From: Escherichia phage JohannBuxtorf_Bas84
Direction: 5' to 3' (one strand)
Sequence record: PQ850611.1
DNA: 44,189 nucleotides
Translations under genes and position numbers: made by a program
Shown: positions 1,948-28,905 of the stretch, piece by piece
Layout of the letters: every line of letters starts with the position of its first letter
Numbering within the stretch: position 1 is the stretch's first letter
The notes under the pieces: generated by a model
The model's input: the letters and a program-made list of their open reading frames with translations, nothing else
What the model was told of the DNA's origin: nothing
Databases searched by the model: none

Positions 1948-3468
1948 ATGACCGTTAACGTTGACAACCAGCACCCGCTCTATGCGCGCATTGCGCCAGA
2001 GTGGAAGATGATCCGCGATTGTGTAGCAGGGGAGCGCGCCGTGAAGGCGTGCGGCCCTTTGTACCTGCCTCATCCCGCCAGTGGCGACAATACTGACCCG
2101 AAAGCACGGGCGCGGTATAAGGCGTACAAGCAACGCGCGGTATTCCTGAACGCCACCGCCCGCACACTAAACGCGCTGTTAGGCGTCGCCTTTGCAAAAC
2201 CTGTAAGTCTGGACCTTTCCGGGGCGATGGCTGACCTGATTGACGACGTAGACGGCAGCGGTATGCCATTGCCGCAACTTCTGCGCGGTGCTATGTCGGA
2301 AGTTCTGCAATCGGGACGCGCGGGCTTTATGGTGGATTACGACCGCCAGGCTAACTTTGATGAACTGGGTAACGTAGTGCCACAGACAGCCGCCGAGATG
2401 GCGGCACACCGACCGCTTATCCGCCTGTATACGGCAGAGCAGATCATCAACTGGCGGCAGACCCACGGCGTCGATACGCTAATTGTGCTGAAGGAAACGG
2501 ACGAAATCAGCACCGAAGACCCGGACGATTTCGCAAACCACGAAGTAACAATCTGGACCGAGCTTCGCATGATTGACGGCAAGGCACACGCCCGCCGCTG
2601 GTTTTACAACGCGGACACGTCCGAAGTGAAGATGGACTTGCCGCGAGGCTTCACCAGAACCGATCTTGTGCCGTTGGTGGATGCTTCCGGTAATGCGCTT
2701 ACGCAACTACCGTTTTGCTGGTGTGGCGCGGTGGACAACAACGCAACGCCTGACGCCGCTCCGCTGGCGGATATCGCATCCATCAACATTAAGCACTACA
2801 ACGCCGAAGCGGACGTCGCCGAGATTGCGCACATCGTGGGGCAACCTACCCTGGTGGCAACTGGCTTGACTCAATCATGGGCTGACAAGAACCTGAAGGG
2901 CGGCATCGCGCTCGGAGCGACTAAGGGCGTTATTCTGGGTCAGAACATGGACGCTAAACTGATTCAGGCCGAGGAGCGCAACTTGTCTGTTGCGCTGTGT
3001 GAGCGACGCGAATTGCAAATGGCTAAACTAGGCGCGGCCCTGGTTGAGAAGGGGACTGCACCTAAGACGGCAACGGAAGCGGCCTACGATGCGCAGACTG
3101 ATAACAGTATCCTGTCGCTTATTGCTGGTAACGTTGAGAAGGCTTTCAACCGCGCGCTGCAAATCGTCCAACTCTTCACCGGTGACACCGCCGACCAGCG
3201 TGTGACGCTGAATAAGTTCTACACCGAGATCACGGTTGATGCGCAGCTTATGACCGCGATGATGTCGGGTGTGCAGACTGGCACGGTCCGCCTGGCTGAT
3301 TTCATCAAGTGGATGATGGCGCAGGGCGTCATCGACGACTCGCAAACCGTCGAGCAGGTGGAAGACGAATTGCGAAATCAGAATCCATTGCCTCAAATGT
3401 CCCCCGATGCGGTAGAATCTACCGAAGAAGACCCGGACAAGGTAGCGGACAATGGCGAAGACAATTAA
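1948..3468 (+). CDS. portal protein
   Basis: 506 aa ORF directly after large terminase with RBS AGGAA; acidic C-terminus; synteny. Confidence 0.75.
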   Translation: MTVNVDNQHPLYARIAPEWKMIRDCVAGERAVKACGPLYLPHPASGDNTDPKARARYKAYKQRAVFLNATARTLNALLGVAFAKPVSLDLSGAMADLIDDVDGSGMPLPQLLRGAMSEVLQSGRAGFMVDYDRQANFDELGNVVPQTAAEMAAHRPLIRLYTAEQIINWRQTHGVDTLIVLKETDEISTEDPDDFANHEVTIWTELRMIDGKAHARRWFYNADTSEVKMDLPRGFTRTDLVPLVDASGNALTQLPFCWCGAVDNNATPDAAPLADIASINIKHYNAEADVAEIAHIVGQPTLVATGLTQSWADKNLKGGIALGATKGVILGQNMDAKLIQAEERNLSVALCERRELQMAKLGAALVEKGTAPKTATEAAYDAQTDNSILSLIAGNVEKAFNRALQIVQLFTGDTADQRVTLNKFYTEITVDAQLMTAMMSGVQTGTVRLADFIKWMMAQGVIDDSQTVEQVEDELRNQNPLPQMSPDAVESTEEDPDKVADNGEDN

Positions 3469-4555
3469 TCAACATTTGGCGGATCGAATGATCCGCCGTC
3501 ACATCTTCACCCAGCGCCTGAGCAATGATCAGGCGCGGAGGGTGCTGGCTATGTGGGAGAAGTTCCGGCCCGCTTTACTGGGTAAGCTGACCGAGTTACT
3601 TGATGGCAAAAAGTCCATGAGCAACAAGGCACTTACCACACTATTAACGCAACTCGACAAGACCGTCAAAACGGAACTGCGCGCCGAGTTTAAGGCGCTG
3701 GCTGAAAGCCTTCAGGAGTTCGCCGACACTGAGGCTGATTATCTCGCCGACACATTAACGGCAGCGATCCAGCCCGCGGTCGCCGTACCGGCTGTCGAGG
3801 TTGTGGGTGTTGTTACCGGCGCGCAGATTGCCGCGACGGCAATGAAAAACCCGTTCCAGGGTAATACGCTGATGCAATGGCCTGATTCACTTTCCGAGTG
3901 GACCAGAACGCAGATCGGCAATCAGGTGCGCGCCGGATTCATCCAGGGCAAGCCAACGATGGAAATTATCGCGGACGTGAGGCGCGCGCTCGGCGGTCGT
4001 AGTGCGCAAGCAATCTCAAGCGTCGTTAAGTCCGCGGTCAACCACTATGCGGCGACCGCCCGCGAATTAATGGTGAAAGCTAATGACGATATTCTCGAAG
4101 GTCGCCAATGGTTGGCTACATTGGACACGCATACTTCTCCCATGTGCCAGCTACGCGATCGCCTGTTTTATCCGGTTGATGTTACTCCCGACACCAAAGG
4201 CAAGCGCGGCGGAAAAGTGGTGGCGGGATCACAATATGGCGCTGGTCCGGGCAAGCTGCATTATTGCTGCCGTTCGACGGAGACGTGGAAAGTCAAAGGC
4301 ATGGAAGATTGGCCCAGTGGTAAGCGTCCGGCACTGAAGGCTGACGCAGGCAGATTGCTGAGTGAGCAGGTCGACGCGCAGACTGATTTCTTCTCCTGGG
4401 TGCAGCGCCAGCCGCGCCATATTCTGGAGGAATTATATGGGGTGCAACGCGCCGACCAGATTATGCGCGGCGTGAAAGTGCCGAAGATGTTCACCGATAC
4501 GGGCGAACTAATGACTATTGCACAGCTTAAAAACCGGGGGTTATGGCGTGATTAA
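3452..4555 (+). CDS. head morphogenesis protein (Mu gpF / SPP1 gp7-like)
   Basis: 367 aa; segment QWLATLDTHTSPMCQLRDRLF resembles the conserved core of Mu F-like minor head proteins; follows portal. Confidence 0.7.
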   Translation: MAKTINQHLADRMIRRHIFTQRLSNDQARRVLAMWEKFRPALLGKLTELLDGKKSMSNKALTTLLTQLDKTVKTELRAEFKALAESLQEFADTEADYLADTLTAAIQPAVAVPAVEVVGVVTGAQIAATAMKNPFQGNTLMQWPDSLSEWTRTQIGNQVRAGFIQGKPTMEIIADVRRALGGRSAQAISSVVKSAVNHYAATARELMVKANDDILEGRQWLATLDTHTSPMCQLRDRLFYPVDVTPDTKGKRGGKVVAGSQYGAGPGKLHYCCRSTETWKVKGMEDWPSGKRPALKADAGRLLSEQVDAQTDFFSWVQRQPRHILEELYGVQRADQIMRGVKVPKMFTDTGELMTIAQLKNRGLWRD

Positions 4556-4877
4556 GTATGCAGCGATCGGGCTGGTAATAGGCCTGGCGGTTGGGTTCTG
4601 GCTAGGTGACTCCTATCGCGCTGGCGTAGTGGCGGAGGCGGCGCGAGAAGCGCAAGCAAAAGCCCAACGGCAGCAAACTAAAGTTATTGAGCGCTCCGTG
4701 CAGGCTGAACAGGCCCGCGACGTAGAATACCGGACTATCACGAAAGAGGTTGTTAAATATGTTACGCGCCCTAACCGCCCTGATTGTAGTTTTGATGTTG
4801 AGCGCGTGCGGATCAAGCAACGTGCCGTTGATGCCGCTAACGGAGTCGGCACTGCGACCGCCGTGCAAGTTCGATAA
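4548..4877 (+). CDS. putative i-spanin (Rz-like), start uncertain (GTG 4548 or TTG 4518)
   Basis: N-terminal hydrophobic helix IKYAAIGLVIGLAVGFWLG followed by charged, Ala/Gln/Arg-rich helical region; a lipoprotein ORF is embedded/overlapping in the +1 frame. Confidence 0.4.
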   Translation: MIKYAAIGLVIGLAVGFWLGDSYRAGVVAEAAREAQAKAQRQQTKVIERSVQAEQARDVEYRTITKEVVKYVTRPNRPDCSFDVERVRIKQRAVDAANGVGTATAVQVR

Positions 4878-4989
4878 CCCGTCCGCAGACCCCGACGAGG
4901 ATTTGATGATTGACGTGAAAAATATGGAATGCGGGGCGAAGCTGAGGGCGCAGGTCCTGGAGTTGCAGCAAATAATTCGGGGGCCGTAA
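4750..4989 (+). CDS. putative o-spanin (Rz1-like lipoprotein) overlapping the i-spanin ORF in another frame
   Basis: signal peptide with lipobox LSAC (MLRALTALIVVLMLSACGSS), Pro-rich mature part; overlapped architecture typical of Rz/Rz1. Confidence 0.4.
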   Translation: MLNMLRALTALIVVLMLSACGSSNVPLMPLTESALRPPCKFDNPSADPDEDLMIDVKNMECGAKLRAQVLELQQIIRGP

Positions 4990-5001
4990 TGGCCCCCTTT
5001 T
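4979..5001. terminator. bidirectional intrinsic terminator between convergent genes
   Basis: perfect GC stem gggggcc/ggccccc with 5-nt loop, followed by TTTT on plus strand and A/T-rich run on minus strand; sits between stop of 4750-4989 and stop of 5004-5768. Confidence 0.7.
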
Positions 5002-5003
5002 CG

Positions 5004-5768
5004 TTAGCGCGGAATACCGCAAATCTCGTTTAACGTCTTCACGTCCAGCGCCACCGCCGTGGACTTCGGCTTGTCCGGGTAAGGAATGAACTGTTCCACT
5101 TCAGGCCACGCCTTGATCAGCTTCTTATCTGTATTGTGCATATCCAGCACGCCGGTAACGGTTAGTTTGAACGCGTCATACTTCGCGCGCAATTCGCGGC
5201 GGGCCTTGTCGTTACGGTCCAGGCGCTTGCAGAAATCATGGTCCGCCGGGTAGTCTGCGCGATCGCGAGGGAGATATATCGGCAGCGCTTTCCCATCCTC
5301 GTCCACTTCACATACTGAGGCCAGCATAACTTCCTCATACCCTGGGACTATATCGCCGAGGTCAGGCGCGAGCTTGTTCATGTATTTGATGTCCCAGTAT
5401 CCGCGACGTACGCGGTTTTGTCGCCCGTCGCCGCTCAATGACAAGGTGCGAACATTGCCGCCTGCGTTTATTTCGAAAGAGGCGTCGTAAACGCTGCCAA
5501 TACCTTTCGGGCGGTCGGTGTTATAGCTATACGTCGCCTTGTTGGTGTAGACGCTGACGCCGTACATCTGCGACTGGTCGCCGCGGATTAACTGGATATG
5601 CTCGCGTAGCGCGGCGAATGTGCGAATGCCTTCCGGCATACAGTCCAGCGTAATGGCGTACGCCAGGTCGCGCGAGTCCATCATGATGGATTTTGCTTCG
5701 GTCGCGATTTCATGGTCGCGCAGGATGTTAGCCAGAATCTGGTTTTTAATGTCTTTCGTCAGTCTCAT
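5004..5768 (-). CDS. hypothetical protein (minus-strand insert in head module)
   Basis: 254 aa from internal ATG (MRLTKDIK...) with RBS GAGGA 8 nt upstream; opposite orientation to flanking structural genes; own upstream motif pair and downstream terminator. Confidence 0.6.
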   Translation of the reverse strand: MRLTKDIKNQILANILRDHEIATEAKSIMMDSRDLAYAITLDCMPEGIRTFAALREHIQLIRGDQSQMYGVSVYTNKATYSYNTDRPKGIGSVYDASFEINAGGNVRTLSLSGDGRQNRVRRGYWDIKYMNKLAPDLGDIVPGYEEVMLASVCEVDEDGKALPIYLPRDRADYPADHDFCKRLDRNDKARRELRAKYDAFKLTVTGVLDMHNTDKKLIKAWPEVEQFIPYPDKPKSTAVALDVKTLNEICGIPR

Positions 5769-21835: not shown

Positions 21836-23632
21836 ATGGCAGCGGGTACTCTATCCGTAACGAATAACAGCAAGGCGGTTGTAGGGGCCGGCACAACGTT
21901 TACCGCGTTTAACGCTGGCGACTTCTTAACGCTGGTGGTAGGACAAGTCCCCTACACCGTAGCTATCGCGTCCGTTGAAAGCGACACCGCTCTTACGCTG
22001 GTGCTGCCGTTCGACGGCCCGACGGCAACCGGCCTCGCGTGGGATGGCGTTAAGCGCGATACCATGTCACTGGCGACGATGGGCGTAACCGTCCAGGCAC
22101 AGAAAGCATTGCGCTTGATGATCGCAGATGAAAACAACTGGCGTGCAATCTTCGGCGACGCTGAAGAAATCACCGTGACGTTACCTAACGGGCAGGTTAT
22201 GCAGGGAATGTCATGGGGCTATCTGTCGCAGTTGATGAAACAGATCGACCCCGTTGAGATGCGCAACCTGCAACAACAAGCCGCCGCATCTGAAGCAGCA
22301 GCGCAGGGATACCGGAACGAGGCCGAAGGCTTCAAGACCGAGACGGCTGGGATTCGCGATGCCACCGATGCCATCAGGACGCAAACCGATCAGATTAAAT
22401 CTGATACGCAGGCCATAAAAGACCAGACCGATCAGATTAAATCTGATACGCAGGCCATAAAAGACCAGACCAACCAGATTAAGACGGATACCGGCGTTAT
22501 TCGCGACGAAGCCAATACCGCGAAGACGGACGCGCAATCCGCCCGCGATGCTGCGCTGGGATACCGGAACGAGGCCGAACAGTTCAAAAATGAGATCGAC
22601 CCGTCGAAACTTCTGGCAAAGGCCAACAACCTTAGCGACGTTGCCGACCCCGCGGCAGCGCGCGACCACTTAGGCATCGGGCCTGACGACACCCTTACAT
22701 TAGGGAACCTGGTAACAACAGGCAACATATCCACGACAGGCGGCATATCCGCGGGCCGCAACACGTGGGATGGGTCTAACTGGGGGAGCCAGGGACTTCT
22801 CGCCTCATTAGCGATCCTATCCCCGGACGGAAACTCAGCCCCAGGCTTATACGTGCGAAAATCCAACGGCGACAGCGGATATGCGGGGGAATGGTTGTAT
22901 TACGAGAACAGTATCAGTTGGGCTACTAACGCGCGTATTGCGGGCTTTCAGTTCCGGTCCCCTAAAGGCGCGATGGGGTATAGCCAGCTATGGTCAGAGG
23001 CTGTGGTGCGTGCGGACGACTTCACGGCACAGAATGGCACGGAAAACTATAAGTCGTTAATCGCAGGGGCCGCTGTGACGCAAGACATAGGATTCGCGGG
23101 CGGTGTCTCGTTCGGGATAATGACAACTGGCATAAACAACTGGCCCCGGGCGCAGATCTCGATCGGCACAGCAGACCGTGACGCCGCTGGGAATATGGCT
23201 TCGCAGATGCACATCCGCTTTAATGAATATGGGCAGATTTCATACGTAGGGCCACTGGGGGCGGGGTCGTTCCAGCAAGTACCTGCGTCGGATCGCAACC
23301 TGAAGCATGACATTGCCGATGACGCAAGCAGCACCGCCTACGACAATATCAAGGCTTTGCGGTTCCGCACGTTCGTATACAACAACGATGAACAGGAACG
23401 GCAGCGTCGCGGTATTATTGCGCAGGAAGTGGAAGAAATCGACCCGCTGTATGTGAAGCACCGCGTGTATAACAATCACGAATTAAATGGGCCGCTGGTG
23501 CACCAGCTTGAACTGGATACGACGCCGCTGTTACTCGACACTATGCGAGCGTTGCAGGATACGATTAAGCAGGTGGAGGAGTTGAAGGCGGAGATCGCGG
23601 CGTTGAAGCAGGCGGAAGAGTTGAAGAAATAG
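21836..23632 (+). CDS. tail fibre protein with C-terminal intramolecular chaperone (peptidase S74-like) domain
   Basis: RBS GAGGA 7 nt upstream of ATG 21836; 14-residue repeats TDQIKSDTQAIKDQ; C-terminal segment NLKHDIADDASSTAYDNIKALRFRTFVYNNDEQERQRRGIIAQEVEEIDPLYV resembles auto-cleaving chaperone domains of phage fibres. Confidence 0.75.
   Translation: MAAGTLSVTNNSKAVVGAGTTFTAFNAGDFLTLVVGQVPYTVAIASVESDTALTLVLPFDGPTATGLAWDGVKRDTMSLATMGVTVQAQKALRLMIADENNWRAIFGDAEEITVTLPNGQVMQGMSWGYLSQLMKQIDPVEMRNLQQQAAASEAAAQGYRNEAEGFKTETAGIRDATDAIRTQTDQIKSDTQAIKDQTDQIKSDTQAIKDQTNQIKTDTGVIRDEANTAKTDAQSARDAALGYRNEAEQFKNEIDPSKLLAKANNLSDVADPAAARDHLGIGPDDTLTLGNLVTTGNISTTGGISAGRNTWDGSNWGSQGLLASLAILSPDGNSAPGLYVRKSNGDSGYAGEWLYYENSISWATNARIAGFQFRSPKGAMGYSQLWSEAVVRADDFTAQNGTENYKSLIAGAAVTQDIGFAGGVSFGIMTTGINNWPRAQISIGTADRDAAGNMASQMHIRFNEYGQISYVGPLGAGSFQQVPASDRNLKHDIADDASSTAYDNIKALRFRTFVYNNDEQERQRRGIIAQEVEEIDPLYVKHRVYNNHELNGPLVHQLELDTTPLLLDTMRALQDTIKQVEELKAEIAALKQAEELKK
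22385..22468 (+). repeat. perfect 42-bp tandem duplication inside tail fibre gene
   Basis: units 22385-22426 and 22427-22468 identical, followed by a degenerate third unit; encode TDQIKSDTQAIKDQ twice. Confidence 0.9.
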
Positions 23633-23636
23633 GAGA

Positions 23637-23657
23637 GGGGCCATACGGCCCCTTTTT
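23637..23657. terminator. bidirectional intrinsic terminator between tail fibre gene and minus-strand early block
   Basis: stem ggggcc/ggcccc with 4-nt loop and T5; flanked by convergent stops at 23632 and 23658. Confidence 0.75.
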
Positions 23658-24209
23658 CTAGTTTGAGTTTTCCCAGTCCATTTTGCGCCGCACCAGCGGG
23701 CTTTCGTAATATTCCTTTCCTTCCACTTCCGCCAAAGTCCAGTCGTTCACAATCACGTATGGCTCCGCGATATCCTCAATTACGCCGTGCGCGCTTTGCG
23801 GCCCTAACGACACACCAACCAGGATAACACCGGCAACGCGACGGGTCAGATATTCGCGAGCGCAACGTGCATCAACCAGCCCACGACGGATGCCGCTGGT
23901 GGCCTTAACCTCGTAGGTCCATACGGCATCGACCACATGCTCGCGGAAGTCGGGACCGGACTTAACCTTGCGTTTACCTACCATGATAATATCGCCGCGG
24001 TCTATGGTATTGGCGCTAAACAGGCCGGTACGCATCAGTAAGCCTTGCGGGATACAACTACGCCCGCCTGCAAACATTTCGCCCAGCACACCGACCAGTC
24101 GGCTTTGCTTGCACGCGTCAGACTTTAAGCGCCACTGGTCAAACTCGATGCTTGCTATCATTGCCGCCAGGTGGAATTGTTTACCAGATATTTCATATTC
24201 GCCGTACAT
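23658..24209 (-). CDS. hypothetical protein, possible PD-(D/E)XK-fold nuclease
   Basis: 183 aa, RBS GAGGA; segment GPDFREHVVDAVWTYEVKATSG fits a PD-x(n)-E-x-K pattern; last gene of the minus-strand block. Confidence 0.45.
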   Translation of the reverse strand: MYGEYEISGKQFHLAAMIASIEFDQWRLKSDACKQSRLVGVLGEMFAGGRSCIPQGLLMRTGLFSANTIDRGDIIMVGKRKVKSGPDFREHVVDAVWTYEVKATSGIRRGLVDARCAREYLTRRVAGVILVGVSLGPQSAHGVIEDIAEPYVIVNDWTLAEVEGKEYYESPLVRRKMDWENSN

Positions 24210-24250
24210 CGTGTGGTCCTCGTTGATGCGGGCCGAAGCCCGCGATTAAA

Positions 24251-24781
24251 TTATTTCAGTACGCCAGTCACCAGTGTTTTTTCCATGTTGCGGAAGTCTT
24301 CCGGCGTCATAAGTATTTTGGACCCATCTTCGCCGTGCAACGTAACCAGTGGTTTAGTTTTCACTAAAACACCCTCCGGCAGCTTCCACGCTTCGACAGT
24401 TTTCTTCACTGCTTCCCGGAAAGCGGTGGCAGCGATCTTGCCATCCAGCTTAACCGCTACGCCCTTCAGGCTGTCAAACTGTGCTGCCGTTGTGTCGATC
24501 TGGACCTCGTCGTGCACGGTGGCGTATGACTCACCCAGTAGAGCAGCATATGCCACTAAATCCACAATGTTATCTTCCTGGTGCTTACGGGTCTGGCGGA
24601 CCAGCTTCAGGCAAATCATGAAGACCCAGGCTTCTTGCTCGGTAAGGTCGCGACCGGTTAGCGCGTTGAATACGGCGGCAATCTGTTTCGCGCTGCGTTC
24701 TTCTTTGGTGTCATATCCATTTTCTTTTCCGCGCTGTTCCATAGTGGTGGCGGCGTTTTTGCAGTATTCGAATGCTTTCAT
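24251..24781 (-). CDS. hypothetical protein; N-terminal all-alpha module tentatively MazG-like nucleotide pyrophosphohydrolase
   Basis: 176 aa from ATG (MKAFEY...) with RBS AAGGAG; paired acidic motifs (KEERSAKQI, TEQEAW, HQEDNIVDL) reminiscent of MazG/HisE-type modules; assignment tentative. Confidence 0.45.
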   Translation of the reverse strand: MKAFEYCKNAATTMEQRGKENGYDTKEERSAKQIAAVFNALTGRDLTEQEAWVFMICLKLVRQTRKHQEDNIVDLVAYAALLGESYATVHDEVQIDTTAAQFDSLKGVAVKLDGKIAATAFREAVKKTVEAWKLPEGVLVKTKPLVTLHGEDGSKILMTPEDFRNMEKTLVTGVLK

Positions 24782-24843
24782 GGTTTGTCTCCTTTGAAGG
24801 GAGGCGGTATTGCCTCCCGATGTGGCTAATGTAATTGGTTGCA

Positions 24844-25314
24844 TTATTGGTTGCAAGTGAATTTTGCAAGATTCACTGAATAAATGTGCGGGACCAGTTC
24901 TTCGCACGCCCGTTTGATGGCGGCTATGTTCTTCGCGCAGTCGTCAATGATGACCAGTTCGTTAACATCTGCGTAGCACACCAGGCCAAATACGGAACGA
25001 GCTTTATATTCCGGCGGCGGGGTGTCATCCAGCATGTGGCGCAAGAACAGACGGCCTTTCGGGAATCGGTCTAATTGCTCTTTCGTTGTCTCCCAGCATT
25101 CAGACTGGCGGTTTGACAGGTACGCAATGTCGAAGCCCTGTTTAGCGTACATGCGCAATAACGGCAGCATGTCATAATTAATGTCTTCGCGGACGTGGGC
25201 CTTATGCCACTTCGCCCAAAACGTTGATTTAGTCTTGATCCCCGGAACTAGGTCGTCGCGCACACTGCTTGACCCGTTGATAACGCCATCTAAATCGCAA
25301 ATCAGTAGTTTCAT
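24844..25314 (-). CDS. HAD-superfamily phosphatase (5'-nucleotidase-like)
   Basis: 156 aa; N-terminal HAD motif I LICDLDGV; internal ...IIDD motif; ATGA coupling with upstream ORF. Confidence 0.6.
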   Translation of the reverse strand: MKLLICDLDGVINGSSSVRDDLVPGIKTKSTFWAKWHKAHVREDINYDMLPLLRMYAKQGFDIAYLSNRQSECWETTKEQLDRFPKGRLFLRHMLDDTPPPEYKARSVFGLVCYADVNELVIIDDCAKNIAAIKRACEELVPHIYSVNLAKFTCNQ

Positions 25315-25532
25315 TTTAATTCCGCCATTAAATTTTCACGTACAATACGGGCTGAGAATGCGTCGCACACAAGATGGCAACGCGCCGTCATAACAAGCCA
25401 GCCAGTTAGGTCAAGGCCCAGCAATTGATGAGGTTGGCTTGCGCGCCTTACTTTATTTCCAGGGAAAACCTGGTAGCGTTTAATTATTTCATCCACGACG
25501 CGAGGACTTCGATCGAAGACTAAGATATTCAT
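25311..25532 (-). CDS. small hypothetical protein
   Basis: 73 aa; RBS GAAGGTG; stop overlaps HAD start (ATGA); fills gap between Dam and HAD genes; overlaps Dam 3' end by ~44 nt so uncertain. Confidence 0.35.
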   Translation of the reverse strand: MNILVFDRSPRVVDEIIKRYQVFPGNKVRRASQPHQLLGLDLTGWLVMTARCHLVCDAFSARIVRENLMAELK

Positions 25533-25998
25533 TTAATTCACCTTCGCTCATTATTTCTATTTGTGCGCTGCCGTTTGGCGGCACTTCTTCAAAGATTATC
25601 AATTGCTGGCACTTGTTGTTACTCGGCCCGACGTTACCGGTGACGGCGTGTATAAACCGGATCCGCCAGTCCAGCAAAATAATCAGGTTGGCGGTTTGCC
25701 TTGCCAGTTTGGCCCACTTCGTGGTCGTATCCTGGTTGAGCAACATTACCGTCTTACGCCCCTGCGATGCGCAAGTCACCCACGGCAGCGGGTCGGAATA
25801 CGGCGGATTGCACCACTTCCACCCGGTTAACTCTGACCAGTCAGCATCAAGTGCGCTGTGCTCTTTCGTGAAGTAGCGCGGTAATAGATGGTTGTGGTCG
25901 CTCGCCGCCATGTCGTAGCGGAATTTAAACGCCTTGCGCAGTGGCTTAAATAAAGCGGGCGGCGTTCGCCAGCTATCCTTCTGCTCATTCTCCGTCAT
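25489..25998 (-). CDS. DNA N6-adenine methyltransferase (phage Dam family)
   Basis: 169 aa; motifs WRTPPALF, DMAAS and catalytic NPPYS characteristic of phage Dam-type N6-adenine MTases. Confidence 0.8.
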   Translation of the reverse strand: MTENEQKDSWRTPPALFKPLRKAFKFRYDMAASDHNHLLPRYFTKEHSALDADWSELTGWKWCNPPYSDPLPWVTCASQGRKTVMLLNQDTTTKWAKLARQTANLIILLDWRIRFIHAVTGNVGPSNNKCQQLIIFEEVPPNGSAQIEIMSEGELNEYLSLRSKSSRRG

Positions 25999-26443
25999 GC
26001 TGCGGGTCCAGTGCGTAAAGTGGGATTTTCTTGTCGCTGGTCAGCACGCGTTTCAGTCGCTCTAATTCCTGCTCCCCTAGCGGACGTGAATCAGAATAGT
26101 AGCTGCCGTTTGCCCGCCACGCCATAAGCACCAGGTCTTTACGGTCGATCTTAGACTGGCGGCCTTTCGGGCGCACGTATTCCTCGGCCCGTTTGCAATG
26201 CTCGCGCAAACCTTCGGCAGTGATGCGGTTTAGGGCAACGCTGGTTGTATATCCGGTGCGCTGCATAATCCCCATCAATTCGAAAAGCAGTTCGAAGCGC
26301 TCCTCTAATTCCTTGCGCATCTTCTCCTCGCCTTCATAGCTTGCCAGGTAGGTATCAGCCAGCGCGTTCGCCCGTTCGGCTTGCTCTCGGGCTTCGAGGC
26401 ATTGCGCGGCCCAGTAATTTTTCTCTTCTTGTAAAATTTTCAT
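25985..26443 (-). CDS. hypothetical protein
   Basis: 152 aa; RBS GGAGA; charged helical N-terminal half; no recognised motif. Confidence 0.55.
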   Translation of the reverse strand: MKILQEEKNYWAAQCLEAREQAERANALADTYLASYEGEEKMRKELEERFELLFELMGIMQRTGYTTSVALNRITAEGLREHCKRAEEYVRPKGRQSKIDRKDLVLMAWRANGSYYSDSRPLGEQELERLKRVLTSDKKIPLYALDPQHDGE

Positions 26444-26460
26444 CGTGTTGTCTCCGGGTA

Positions 26461-26488
26461 TTAAAAAGGGCGTCCAAACCGGACACCC
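26461..26488 (-). terminator. minus-strand hairpin plus U5 between motif pair and RBS of 25985-26443
   Basis: stem gggtgtcc/ggacgccc (one G-U) with 5-nt loop followed on the minus strand by TTTTT; lies between TGCAACCAAT pair (26498-26524) and the RBS. Confidence 0.5.
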
Positions 26489-26524
26489 TCAATATAATGC
26501 AACCAATCTAATTATGCAACCAAT

Positions 26525-26848
26525 TTACGAATAAAAATTTGGGTCGCGTGCAACGTCTACCAGATACAGATTGCTGATTCGGTTGCCGTAGTGGCCTGGT
26601 GTTCGCTGGCGGCACACAACGGCGTAGCCTGGAGGAATTGTATTGCCGGTCGCGATAATCCACGCCACGCGTGCGCCAGACAGCGTCTTTCCGTTGCATT
26701 CGATACGTGTTCCGCCGTCGGCAGTATTGATGTTGCCAATCTTGCAGCCGGTGGACTTCAGACGAATGACGCCGGTTTTGCTGTCGTAGGAGAATAACTG
26801 GTTAGTCATTGCGACCGAAAAGTCGATGGCTTCGAATGTCGTATTCAT
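26525..26848 (-). CDS. HNH_3-like small protein (possibly degenerate HNH endonuclease)
   Basis: 107 aa; RBS GAGGA; segment ARVAWIIATGNTIPPGYAVVCRQRTPGHYGNRISNLYLVD resembles the HNH_3 core but the usual catalytic His position is not obvious. Confidence 0.4.
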   Translation of the reverse strand: MNTTFEAIDFSVAMTNQLFSYDSKTGVIRLKSTGCKIGNINTADGGTRIECNGKTLSGARVAWIIATGNTIPPGYAVVCRQRTPGHYGNRISNLYLVDVARDPNFYS

Positions 26849-27484
26849 TTTAAATTTTCCTCGTTAACCGCTATCGCGAAGCCGCGCGGAGTGAGCGACC
26901 GGATTAATTTTGTGCGGGCTGATTTGCCTCCGAGGCGACTATACTGCTTCGAGTACCCTTTTTCAACGAAAACGGGTTTCTTCTCTGGCATACGGAAGCC
27001 GTTGCCGGTCCATAAGCAGGTCAGCTTCGGATATGAATCGCGGGCGTTGATGTATTCCGGGAAGAGCGGGTGTACGTCATCCTCCGGCAGATATCCCCCA
27101 TACTCCCACGGGTCGAATGAGTGATCCGGTTTGCGCCACTGGGTGGATAGCACACTGCGCGGATTCTCAATCATATATGGCACTTCGAAGAAGTCACCCA
27201 GGTAAGCGGCGATCTTCGCGGTGCGCACCGCTCACTGCCAGATCCGTGCACGGAGGAAACGCATAGATGATATCTGGCGTACCGAAATCACCATTCATCG
27301 CACGGTCTACAAAGTCCAGATCGATAAACTCATTGCGATAGCGGATTCCGCGACCATAAATCCGGTAGTCAAGGTATGACCCGTGATCAGCTTCGGAGTA
27401 GTTGAAGCAATAACACTTATGCCCCATCTCGGCAGCACGCTCAATCATCAAGCCGCTGCCGTCAAACAATGACCAGATTATCAT
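26845..27484 (-). pseudogene. C5-cytosine DNA methyltransferase-like gene split by a frame disruption
   Basis: ORF 27194-27484 carries motif I-like LFDGSG and motif IV-like FPPCTDLAVSGA; ORF 26845-27228 (GTG start, other frame) carries motif VI-like ENP and C-terminal TPRGFAIAV; frames differ by +1 within 27197-27231. Confidence 0.5.
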
Positions 27485-28905
27485 TTGCGCGCCTTTTTAG
27501 CTTTCATGTATTCCATCAAGTCGTCCTGAATATCTCGCTTACTGTCGCGACGCTCGGCGACCAATTCGTCCAGTGTACCGCGCGCCTGGATAATGTAGAC
27601 GAATACCGGTCGAGGGTGTCCGGCCTGCATCTGGCGAACCGGCCCGATACGTTCAACGATCTGCGAAAAGTGCTCAAAGTTCCAGGTATCGGAGAATATT
27701 GCCAGGTGATGTCCGCCGTCCTGCAAGTTAAGGCCGTGGCCCGCCGATGCCGGGTGTGCAAACATGATGGGGATCTCGCCCCTGTTCCACGCTTCCATAT
27801 CCTTATTGCCCTGCTTACCTTTACCCAACGCAACGCCGTGCGGAAATTTCTTCTTAAGACGTGCCAGGTCATGCTTATACTGATACGCAACGAGCAACGG
27901 CGCGCCGTTCAACTCCTCCACGATACTTTCCAGCGCGTCCAGTTTGGCGTCGTGAATCTTCACCCACTCGTCGGTCCTTTCGCCGTCTTCGTCCACCTTA
28001 TACACAGCGCCGGAAGCAAGCTGAAGGCACTTAATTGTCTTCGATGCCGCGTTCGCCGCTTCCACAGTCCCGCTTTCCAGTTCGGCGAATAGCTCGCTTT
28101 CAAACTGGTCGTAAATCTTGCGGGCTTTCTTCGGCAGGTCCACAACAACAGGCGTATAGATTGGCTTGTCGCACCCGAAATATTCAGCCGCGTCAACGGT
28201 GAGGGATACATCTGACAGACGTTGTTGTATCTCTTTCTCGGAGTTCTTTAGCGGAGCGTGCTGCATAGTGAAGCTGCCAGGCTTAACAGGCTTGCTAATG
28301 AACCAGCGGTCGGTAAATGCCTTATAGCTACTGCCGAGGCGTTCGCCACCGTCGACAAACCACGTCTGACCCCATAAGTCTTTCAGCCCGTTGGGTGCGG
28401 GTGTGCCTGTAAGGTTAATCCAGCGCTTGACGTGTTTATGTGCAATCGCTGCTAGTGCGCGGGCGCGCTTGCTCCCCTGCGTGCTACGATAGCCTTTCAG
28501 CTTAGTGGATTCATCGGCAACAACGACCGTAAAGGGCCACGCATCGCCGTAATAGTCGACCAGCCACTCAACCACATCATAGTTAACACAAACCACGTTA
28601 GCATCGCTCTCAAGCGCTGCGATACGGTCCTTCTCCGGCCCAGTGCCGTCTACGACCAGCAGGGATGAGAACCGCCATTTCTCCTGCTCCGGGGGCCATG
28701 TACCTGACGCAACGCGCAGCGGGGCCAGCACCAGTACGCGGTCCTCATGATGGGACAGGACGCCAGTCTGGAACATTTTATTCAGCGCCCACATTGTCGC
28801 GCCGGTTTTTCCCGATCCCATTGTCGCCCAGATATTACATCGCTTATGCTTGAGGATGAACGCGGTTATCAACTTCTGATATTCGCGGCGTCGGAATCGT
28901 GCCAT
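27481..28905 (-). CDS. SNF2/DEAD-like superfamily 2 helicase
   Basis: 475 aa from ATG 28905 (MARFRRREYQ...); motif I GSGKT, motif II VVADESTK, motif VI-like QIVERIGPVRQ. Confidence 0.8.
   Translation of the reverse strand: MARFRRREYQKLITAFILKHKRCNIWATMGSGKTGATMWALNKMFQTGVLSHHEDRVLVLAPLRVASGTWPPEQEKWRFSSLLVVDGTGPEKDRIAALESDANVVCVNYDVVEWLVDYYGDAWPFTVVVADESTKLKGYRSTQGSKRARALAAIAHKHVKRWINLTGTPAPNGLKDLWGQTWFVDGGERLGSSYKAFTDRWFISKPVKPGSFTMQHAPLKNSEKEIQQRLSDVSLTVDAAEYFGCDKPIYTPVVVDLPKKARKIYDQFESELFAELESGTVEAANAASKTIKCLQLASGAVYKVDEDGERTDEWVKIHDAKLDALESIVEELNGAPLLVAYQYKHDLARLKKKFPHGVALGKGKQGNKDMEAWNRGEIPIMFAHPASAGHGLNLQDGGHHLAIFSDTWNFEHFSQIVERIGPVRQMQAGHPRPVFVYIIQARGTLDELVAERRDSKRDIQDDLMEYMKAKKARK

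Follow-up and report, generated by a model that had tools for sequence, protein, structure and literature searches.

A Dhillonvirus accessory-gene block with an ortholog of the immune trigger Ksap1 in Escherichia phage JohannBuxtorf_Bas84

Ksap1 (KpAvs2-stimulating protein 1) of phage SECphi18 binds the C-terminal sensor of Klebsiella pneumoniae Avs2, which leads to abortive infection (Bechon et al., 2024, Nat Commun 15:9860; PMC11564622). In the same study, Ksap1 was found to be confined to Dhillonviruses, residues K30, L39, and F60 were needed for KpAvs2 activation, L47 and T50 were escape sites, natural variants in SECphi6 and Bas16 escaped KpAvs2 recognition, and ksap1 deletions were tolerated by SECphi18 (PMC11564622). 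Here, we describe the gene block that surrounds the corresponding gene in Escherichia phage JohannBuxtorf_Bas84, using a 44,189-nt stretch of its DNA (sequence record PQ850611.1), which we refer to as the window. The core of the block is formed by four minus-strand genes for a DUF6378 protein, a HAD-superfamily phosphatase, a small protein, and a Dam-type DNA methyltransferase (Table 1). An initial annotation described them as a cassette for manipulation of the nucleotide pool and protective DNA methylation. We favor another reading, to which we assign a probability of about 60%: the block would be the conserved distal end of the leftward early/replication operon of Dhillonviruses, with accessory genes that are mostly independent and do not form one integrated pathway.

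The block is shared by many genomes. A megablast search with region 23600-27500 matched 158 phage records, nearly all of them Dhillonvirus coliphages, and a single match spanned at least 80% of the region in 142 of the 158. The nearest matches, slur05 and JLBYU60, have approximately 90% nucleotide identity, and by this similarity the JohannBuxtorf_Bas84 window is assigned to Dhillonvirus. Gene order and strand are identical in the annotated relatives SECphi18 (gp48-gp53), Oekolampad (bas18_0028-0033), and JLBYU60 (JLBYU60_29-33). Amino acid identity to Dhillonvirus relatives is 74-98% for the HAD phosphatase, Dam, and DUF6378 proteins and 51-98% for Ksap1, and the spacers and hairpins of the block are likewise conserved. 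In Oekolampad, genes for a PD-(D/E)XK nuclease, a single-stranded DNA-binding protein, DNA polymerase I, a SNF2-type helicase, a Dcm-like methyltransferase, and an HNH protein precede the block genes. There the leftward early/replication operon terminates with the block, at a hairpin that faces the gene for the lateral tail fibre.

Differences between relatives are local. Oekolampad has an extra 80-aa gene, bas18_0034 (positions 4342-4584 of the retrieved locus), between the HNH and 152-aa genes, which is not present in the window, SECphi18, or JLBYU60; hence, the block accepts gene insertions at a spacer. In JohannBuxtorf_Bas84, by comparison with its relatives, the hypervariable middle segment of the DUF6378 protein is replaced, 24 nt are missing from the 183-aa gene, and loss of 56 nt shifts the frame of the Dcm-like gene. 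The gene block is already known from more than 140 sequenced relatives, as an ordinary accessory-gene block that ends the Dhillonvirus early operon.

The four open reading frames (ORFs) lie exactly at the coordinates given in the initial annotation. Substitutions against three relatives, counted at codon positions 1/2/3, amount to 55/28/153 for the HAD gene, 50/40/154 for the Dam gene, 51/32/87 for the small ORF, and 20/12/75 for the N-terminal domain of the DUF6378 protein. This excess at third positions identifies the four ORFs as coding genes under purifying selection. Two competing gene models were rejected. A plus-strand ORF opposite the DUF6378 gene (24171-24797, 208 aa) is an antisense artefact, as the codon-position bias fits the minus-strand frames. 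A GTG start at 24907, which would give a DUF6378 protein of 218 aa, was discarded because relatives begin at the position equivalent to 24781; the extended frame is also broken by 1-2-nt indels in the spacer of relatives.

Translational coupling of all four genes, as initially proposed, holds only in part. The Dam gene and the small ORF overlap by 44 nt, and the small ORF and the HAD gene share an ATGA overlap, but the HAD and DUF6378 genes are kept apart by a 62-nt spacer. Upstream, the gene for a 152-aa protein (p152) overlaps the Dam start by 14 nt. The overlapping p152, Dam, Ksap1, and HAD genes probably constitute one co-translated unit, and the DUF6378 gene would open a second sub-unit, together with the 183-aa gene, behind a promoter-like element and a hairpin of its own. 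We infer this promoter from hexamers in the spacer 24782-24843 that have 8 of 12 consensus positions. The hairpin in the same spacer (24799-24818, minus strand) has a predicted energy of -15.3 kcal/mol (z = -3.0); in SECphi18 and Oekolampad, compensatory changes maintain the stem.

The small ORF, left unidentified in the initial annotation, is assigned here as an ortholog of the published immune trigger Ksap1. Its product is 51% identical to SECphi18 Ksap1 (70% positives, E 1e-27, 73 of 74 residues) and matches phrog_10685 (E 1.8e-40), and the gene occupies the location of ksap1 between the methyltransferase and phosphatase genes of Dhillonvirus. The two proteins have the core LGLDLTGWLV.T.RCH in common, and L39, L47, T50, and F60 of SECphi18 Ksap1 are conserved as L38, L46, T49, and F59. 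About half of the residues nevertheless differ, and the contact residue K30 is replaced by an arginine, R29. In the first unit, Ksap1 would be the small protein that KpAvs2 binds to fire abortive infection, as known from SECphi18. However, as natural variants escape, sensing of the window protein by KpAvs2 cannot be predicted. Searches of PADLOC, NCBIfam, and PDB with this protein gave no matches. The RefSeq label "acid phosphatase" on ksap1 of SECphi18 (positions 3210-3434 of the retrieved locus) is apparently an annotation error.

Alternatively, Ksap1 could associate with the HAD phosphatase, as a partner or as a regulatory subunit, so that both proteins would act as a complex. We consider it very unlikely. 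It would agree with the ATGA overlap of the two genes, with the fixed Dam-Ksap1-HAD order across the genus, and with the restriction to Dhillonviruses of both Ksap1 and, at high identity, the HAD subfamily. Foldseek searches with Ksap1 yielded marginal matches resembling receiver domains, but the phospho-acceptor Asp is absent from Ksap1 (PMC11564622). Receiver domains rely on phospho-aspartate chemistry. This support is purely circumstantial; moreover, Ksap1 evolves much faster than the HAD protein (51% vs. 80% identity to SECphi18), and loss of ksap1 is tolerated.

The Dam-type N6-adenine methyltransferase was correctly recognized in the initial annotation, including its NPPYS motif (residues 64-68). 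The protein scores 126.9 bits against PF05869 (cutoff 28.1, E 8.3e-37), its residues 2-139 aligning with profile positions 4-147 of 169, and N64-P65-P66-Y67 is aligned with the NPPY of Dam from the temperate phage mEp021. By these matches we regard it as a secure member of the PF05869 family. The NCBIfam model TIGR01712 (phage_N6A_met) gives 86.5 bits, which is below the equivalog cutoff of 97.05 and thus indicates a family member rather than a certified equivalog; the PADLOC "orphan MTase" model matches with E 2.6e-10. Features common to the PF05869/TIGR01712 family are small size (~170 aa), the NPPY catalytic motif, and an N-terminal region with W-x-T-P and D-x-A-A, whereas identity to the T1-like and Shiga toxin (Stx)-phage enzymes is only 27-37%, with 36-37% for Dam of Stx-converting phages and mEp021. 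Dam enzymes of phage T1 and Stx phages have GATC specificity. The window enzyme would methylate replicating phage DNA, so that either protection would be confined to its own target site or the phage DNA would be kept fully methylated.

The Dam-type assignment of the initial annotation thus stands, but a broad anti-restriction role is weakly supported. E. coli hosts themselves methylate GATC and CCWGG. Furthermore, Dhillonviruses have been described as comparatively sensitive to restriction-modification (PMC8594841), and SECphi18 tolerates the partial loss, by deletion, of the gene preceding ksap1 (PMC11564622), which the gene order identifies as the Dam gene. Together, these observations weaken the anti-restriction idea. 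Avoidance was not seen in the window for either GATC (166 sites, observed/expected 0.82) or CCWGG (155 sites). Methylation can also be a liability, as escape from Dazbog and Nhi-like systems is seen in mutants that have lost methylase function (bioRxiv 10.1101/2022.08.27.505566).

The second enzyme of the initial annotation, the HAD phosphatase, is supported by both conservation and structure prediction. All four catalytic motifs are found across 14 homologues: motif I DLDGV (residues 7-11; D7-L-D9-G-V11) is invariant, motif II is S67 (serine or threonine), motif III K104 is invariant, and motif IV is D/E124-D125 with an invariant D125. A family-specific insert between motifs I and II, W33-x2-W36-H-K-A-H40, is also invariant in the homologues. 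The HAD fold is confirmed by an AlphaFold2 model with a predicted local distance difference test (pLDDT) score of 85.8 and a predicted template-modelling (TM) score of 0.82, which Foldseek matches to 21 PDB HAD structures at E <= 1e-3 with probability 1.0. Pfam HAD families stay under their gathering thresholds: Acid_phosphat_B (PF03767) scores 22.1 vs. 27 bits, and HAD_PNKP (PF25109) 14.8 vs. 27.6 bits. The protein would act as a Mg-dependent phospho-aspartyl phosphomonoesterase, and its substrate could be 3'-phosphorylated nucleic acid ends or mononucleotides.

A nucleotide-pool substrate for this enzyme, as initially proposed, did not find confirmation; the closest folds are polynucleotide 3'-phosphatases and not nucleotidases. 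Foldseek ranks two structures highest: Pnkp1, from the Pnkp1/Rnl/Hen1 RNA-repair complex (4xru, E 3e-5), and T4 Pnkp, represented by its isolated 3'-phosphatase domain (5uj0, 143 aa, E 7e-5, target-normalised TM score 0.71). They would fit a stand-alone polynucleotide 3'-phosphatase for repair or counter-defence, which, in analogy with the T4 Pnkp phosphatase domain, would heal 3'-phosphate or 2',3'-cyclic-phosphate ends left by host nucleases in phage DNA or in host tRNA/RNA. We treat this scenario as possible but doubtful. It is in line with a match to phrog_415 "polynucleotide kinase" (E 1.7e-31), with the same annotation of distant homologues in N4-like phages, and with the similar size, single-domain architecture, and DxDGx nucleophile motif of the window protein and the T4 domain. 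In addition, HAD enzymes without a cap domain tend toward macromolecular substrates. Unlike T4 Pnkp and Pnkp1, however, the window protein has neither a kinase domain nor a partner ligase, and its identity to them is 17-21%. All of its 156 residues belong to the HAD domain, with no Walker A motif and no match to a P-loop kinase family in Pfam. Kinase domains and ligases are absent from the phage, and the name "DNA ligase" given to the neighboring 152-aa protein is unsupported. The Foldseek E-values are modest, and Lem4, LNS2/lipin, and class B/C acid phosphatases score nearly equally. The T4 phosphatase also hydrolyses 3'-mononucleotides, so the fold similarity cannot separate the two substrate classes. 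An end-healing 3'-phosphatase role is at least as well supported as a nucleotide-pool substrate.

The product of the DUF6378 gene matches PF19905 (DUF6378) over residues 14-84 (42.2 bits vs. a threshold of 27.1, E 1e-10). This family comprises 2498 representative clusters at 50% identity, whose members consist of the domain alone or carry unannotated segments fused to its N- or C-terminal side. Nine residues, R17, E28, K59, R62, D70, D74, Y78, L81, and E84, are invariant in 35 diverse members. AlphaFold2 predicts four confident helices in residues 3-91, with pLDDT values of 85-96 in the helical parts of residues 1-90 and lower values in the loop at 21-30, and leaves the C-terminal half poorly defined. 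Synonymous and non-synonymous codon changes number 65 and 23 in the N-terminal part of the gene and 63 and 89 in the C-terminal part. The middle of the protein (residues ~107-145) is hypervariable and length-variable among Dhillonviruses, and the last ~30 residues are conserved. The orthologues range from 130 to 199 aa, the middle being flanked by the helical domain and the conserved tail VLTGEDGSKILMTPEDFRNMEKTLV; in JohannBuxtorf_Bas84, this segment is replaced by unrelated sequence.

The MazG-like assignment made for this protein in the initial annotation was not demonstrated. There is a general likeness to MazG and other all-alpha nucleoside triphosphate (NTP) pyrophosphohydrolases, namely a helical bundle of ~90 residues with conserved acidic residues, encoded by phages among nucleotide-metabolism genes. 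In contrast to them, DUF6378 has no profile link to MazG, and fold comparison did not discriminate, as the similarity is no better than to unrelated helical bundles. A relaxed Pfam scan (E <= 10) of 71 DUF6378 members returned PF19905 only and no family of the MazG clan. A search of PDB sequences with a 35-sequence DUF6378 profile gave no match, and Foldseek found nothing in PDB below E 0.2 for the DUF6378 model. The MazG metal signature EExxE...ExxD is absent; the invariant residues include a D70-x3-D74 pair and no ExxE pair. No alignment was produced by hhalign between the DUF6378 profile and a Rhizobium phage "NTP pyrophosphohydrolase," a target that itself has no Pfam match. Other apparent similarities were dismissed: searches of PDB sequences with the DUF6378 protein alone or with the profile gave at most chance matches, such as S100 and an acetyltransferase, and WD40 proteins matching residues 95-160 are repeat-summed artefacts, as these are true WD40 propellers that lack a DUF6378 domain. 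PHROGs phrog_474 and phrog_1167 label DUF6378 families "phosphofructokinase," for which Pfam, NCBIfam, and PDB give no support. Thus, the label "MazG-like" is not established; a nucleotide-related role is plausible from the gene neighborhoods described below.

Another uncharacterised protein of phages and viruses, NMAD1 (DUF1599, PF07659), resembles DUF6378 in accompanying dUTPase and ThyX. The dUTPase-ThyX-NMAD1 block of Asgard viruses (bioRxiv 10.1101/2021.07.29.453957) is mirrored by DUF6378 neighborhoods, and the DUF6378 ortholog of SECphi18 is labelled "Nucleotide modification associated protein" in RefSeq. No cross-match to PF07659 was seen in Pfam at E <= 10 among the 71 DUF6378 members; any kinship would be beyond the sensitivity of HMMER.

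The genomic context of DUF6378 in other phages was characterized using approximately 11 annotated contexts, hand-picked from the spread of BLAST matches. In Vibrio schitovirus 1.150.O, ThyX overlaps the DUF6378 gene, and anaerobic ribonucleotide reductase (NrdD) is located ~0.8 kb downstream. In Klebsiella phage P184, ThyA and the small and large subunits of ribonucleotide reductase are encoded upstream. Carvaje and SP069 have a dUTPase gene divergent from the DUF6378 gene, and Proteus phage Isfahan has genes for dCMP deaminase and dUTPase nearby. Methyltransferases provide a second group of neighbors. In mEp021, the Dam gene overlaps the DUF6378 gene, and a gene for a 51%-identical Dcm-like protein is 0.5 kb away; KW1E_UTAR and Koroua encode a PF05869-type Dam within 4.5 kb. 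Dcm, Dam, ThyX, and DUF6378 occur together in Faecalibacterium phage FP01 (PMC13432834). Hence, DUF6378 adjoins pyrimidine deoxynucleotide genes and orphan Dam/Dcm-like methyltransferases in phages of both Proteobacteria and Firmicutes. These thymidylate, dUTP, ribonucleotide reductase, and methyltransferase neighbors make a nucleotide-linked function a reasonable inference, and most likely DUF6378 binds or hydrolyses a (deoxy)nucleotide. In the 14 DUF6378 loci examined outside Dhillonvirus, no homologues of the HAD protein or Ksap1 were found alongside.

These neighborhoods bear on an integrated scheme close to that of the initial annotation. In this scheme, DUF6378 would work as a MazG-type (d)NTP pyrophosphohydrolase, its nucleoside monophosphate product would be dephosphorylated by the HAD protein acting as a nucleotidase, and Dam would protect the genome; the outcome would be a reshaped or sanitised nucleotide pool or destruction of a signalling nucleotide. 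We find it unlikely. The recurrent ThyX/ThyA, ribonucleotide reductase, dUTPase, and dCMP deaminase neighbors are consistent with it, as is the adjacency of the HAD and DUF6378 genes in every Dhillonvirus examined, and in the model the invariant E28, D70, D74, E84, K59, and R62 are placed on a four-helix bundle in a manner compatible with metal and phosphate binding. On the other hand, neither hidden Markov models nor profiles nor a specific fold similarity connected DUF6378 to MazG families, and the canonical motif is missing. The HAD and DUF6378 genes are uncoupled by a hairpin-bearing spacer, the other DUF6378 loci examined have no HAD homologue, and the HAD fold is nearest to polynucleotide phosphatases rather than 5'-nucleotidases. 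Dhillonviruses also carry no further nucleotide-metabolism genes, judging from the gene content of Oekolampad. A still more inclusive variant seems quite improbable to us: DUF6378 would be a nucleotide-processing enzyme family that in Dhillonviruses pairs with the HAD protein, for a two-step route from (d)NTP to nucleoside or for degradation of a defence-related nucleotide, and Ksap1 might be the phosphatase partner.

The absence of HAD and Ksap1 from the 14 other DUF6378 loci, the hairpin spacer, and the inserted gene in a relative all argue against a single obligate pathway, and we prefer to view the block as an operon end made of mostly independent accessory genes. Several points weigh against this preference. 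The HAD gene stands beside the DUF6378 gene in all Dhillonviruses, an arrangement that a joint function of the two would fit as well. The sample of DUF6378 neighborhoods is small, was picked by hand, and includes the related phages Carvaje and SP069. The promoter-like hexamers TTGCAA-17-TACATT are weak and were not picked up by a promoter consensus scan, so the whole block may be one transcript. GATC specificity of the window Dam is extrapolated from T1 and Stx-phage family members. Finally, biochemical data on proteins of the block are limited to Ksap1-KpAvs2 binding in a relative.

Table 1. Features of the gene block and repeat copies in the window
Feature	Coordinates	Strand	Size	Details
Terminator-like hairpin	23636-23653	-		closes leftward operon, facing tail-fibre gene; 7 pairs, 6 GC; -14.8 kcal/mol, z -3.05
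183-aa conserved protein	23658-24209	-	183 aa	last gene of leftward operon; phrog_10558, E 1e-106
GC-rich hairpin	24228-24243	-		GCGGGC-UUCG-GCCCGC, between DUF6378 and 183-aa genes; -13.6 kcal/mol, z -2.6
DUF6378 protein	24251-24781	-	176 aa	N-terminal four-helix bundle (residues 3-91), hypervariable middle, conserved C-terminal tail
HAD-DUF6378 spacer	24782-24843	-	62 nt	two TGCAACCAAT copies, promoter-like TTGCAA-17-TACATT, hairpin, AGGAG ribosome-binding site
Small single-domain HAD-superfamily phosphatase	24844-25314	-	156 aa	D7/D9, S67, K104, D124-D125
Ksap1 ortholog	25311-25532	-	73 aa	51% identity to SECphi18 Ksap1
Orphan Dam-type N6-adenine DNA methyltransferase (predicted)	25489-25998	-	169 aa	PF05869; NPPY residues 64-67
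p152	25985-26443	-	152 aa	first gene of overlapping unit; phrog_10530, E 5e-91
Spacer upstream of 152-aa gene	26444-26524	-		two inverted TGCAACCAAT copies, promoter-like TTGCAT-17-TATATT, hairpin 26466-26490 followed by U5
HNH-like endonuclease	26525-26848	-	107 aa	phrog_99, E 1.5e-16; Pfam HNH_3 marginal, E 0.074
Dcm-like short C5-methyltransferase-like gene, broken	26845-27484	-		56-nt deletion; halves match phrog_757, E 5e-27 and 9e-46
TGCAACCAAT copies	5791/5805 (+), 21810 (+), 24834/24846 (-), 26498/26515 (+), 36109 (-), 39386/39417 (-), 40126 (+), 42550 (+)

For the genes on both sides of the four, codon-position differences are 52/35/124 (152-aa gene) and 15/9/124 (183-aa gene); the latter has 110 synonymous vs. 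25 non-synonymous codon changes, indicating very strong purifying selection. The 152-aa protein has no match in Pfam, NCBIfam, PADLOC, or PDB. Its PHROG label "DNA ligase" was rejected, as Pfam, NCBIfam, and PDB give no support and the protein is too small to be a ligase. From the 183-aa gene, 24 nt are deleted in frame at ~24071, between GCAGGC repeats, which makes the protein 8 residues shorter than in relatives. KW1E_UTAR encodes a 32%-identical homologue at the locus that also holds its genes for Dam and DUF6378. The 183-aa protein had no match in PADLOC, NCBIfam, or PDB; a possible PD-(D/E)XK nuclease is hinted at by the pattern D...E-V-K (VVDAVWTYEVK) in its sequence.

Two further neighbors mentioned in the initial annotation, an HNH-like gene and a disrupted C5-methyltransferase-like gene, were both borne out, the former by its PHROG match (Table 1) and the latter by alignment with intact 236-aa genes, in which the 56-nt deletion is seen. 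The deletion lies between two 9-bp direct repeats GCGGTGCGC, with a junction near 27223-27231, and causes a frameshift after the PPC motif with loss of the segment. The 56 nt are retained in the best 12 of 148 matching records, and among these the deletion is apparently unique to JohannBuxtorf_Bas84. It could be a real loss of function or an assembly artefact. Loss of a methylase is a known escape route from methylation-sensing defences. The intact family, represented by JLBYU60 (positions 4729-5439 of the retrieved locus), has visible FDGSG, PPC, and ENP motifs; this ortholog has no Pfam PF00145, NCBIfam, PADLOC, or PDB sequence match and matches only phrog_757 "DNA methyltransferase." The 236-aa protein is 51% identical to a protein of the unrelated temperate phage mEp021 (positions 4949-5707 of the retrieved locus), where the Dcm-like, PF05869 Dam, and DUF6378 genes are again found together; thus, the three genes recur jointly.

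Each spacer of the block has a stable GC-rich hairpin right before the next ribosome-binding site (24799-24818, 24228-24243, 26466-26490, and 23636-23653, all on the minus strand). By inspection of the sequence, the hairpin at 24228-24243 has no U-run 3' of it. The hairpin at 26466-26490 is followed by a U-run, yet it is positioned downstream of a promoter-like element; its spacer (26444-26524) is 97% conserved in SECphi18 and JLBYU60. Candidate roles for these hairpins are a 5' stabiliser, a processing site, or an attenuator. Rfam and tRNA scans of the window gave no matches.

The 10-mer TGCAACCAAT has 12 exact copies in the window and 17 with one mismatch, vs. 3.2 +/- 1.9 expected. The copies are often paired and intergenic, and adjoin or overlap promoter-like hexamers; an example is the copy at 36109, which lies between the two hexamers of TTGACA-18-TATTAT. 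Upstream of the DUF6378 gene, the orientation of the pair changes from direct to inverted in relatives. We consider TGCAACCAAT a candidate operator for a phage regulator.

In summary, the initial observation of this gene set was real and mostly accurate, and its interpretation is partly supported. Three labels should be corrected: the small ORF encodes Ksap1 and not "acid phosphatase," the 176-aa protein belongs to DUF6378 and is neither MazG nor "phosphofructokinase," and the 152-aa protein is not a ligase. The block is known from many genomes, and its Ksap1 has a published role as an immune trigger; we therefore predict that JohannBuxtorf_Bas84 could be targeted by Avs2 systems that sense Ksap1. 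The function of DUF6378 is a question for the whole family, with nothing special to this locus, and the placement of DUF6378 genes beside thymidylate, dUTP, ribonucleotide reductase, and methyltransferase genes in unrelated phages offers a testable lead for this widespread orphan family.

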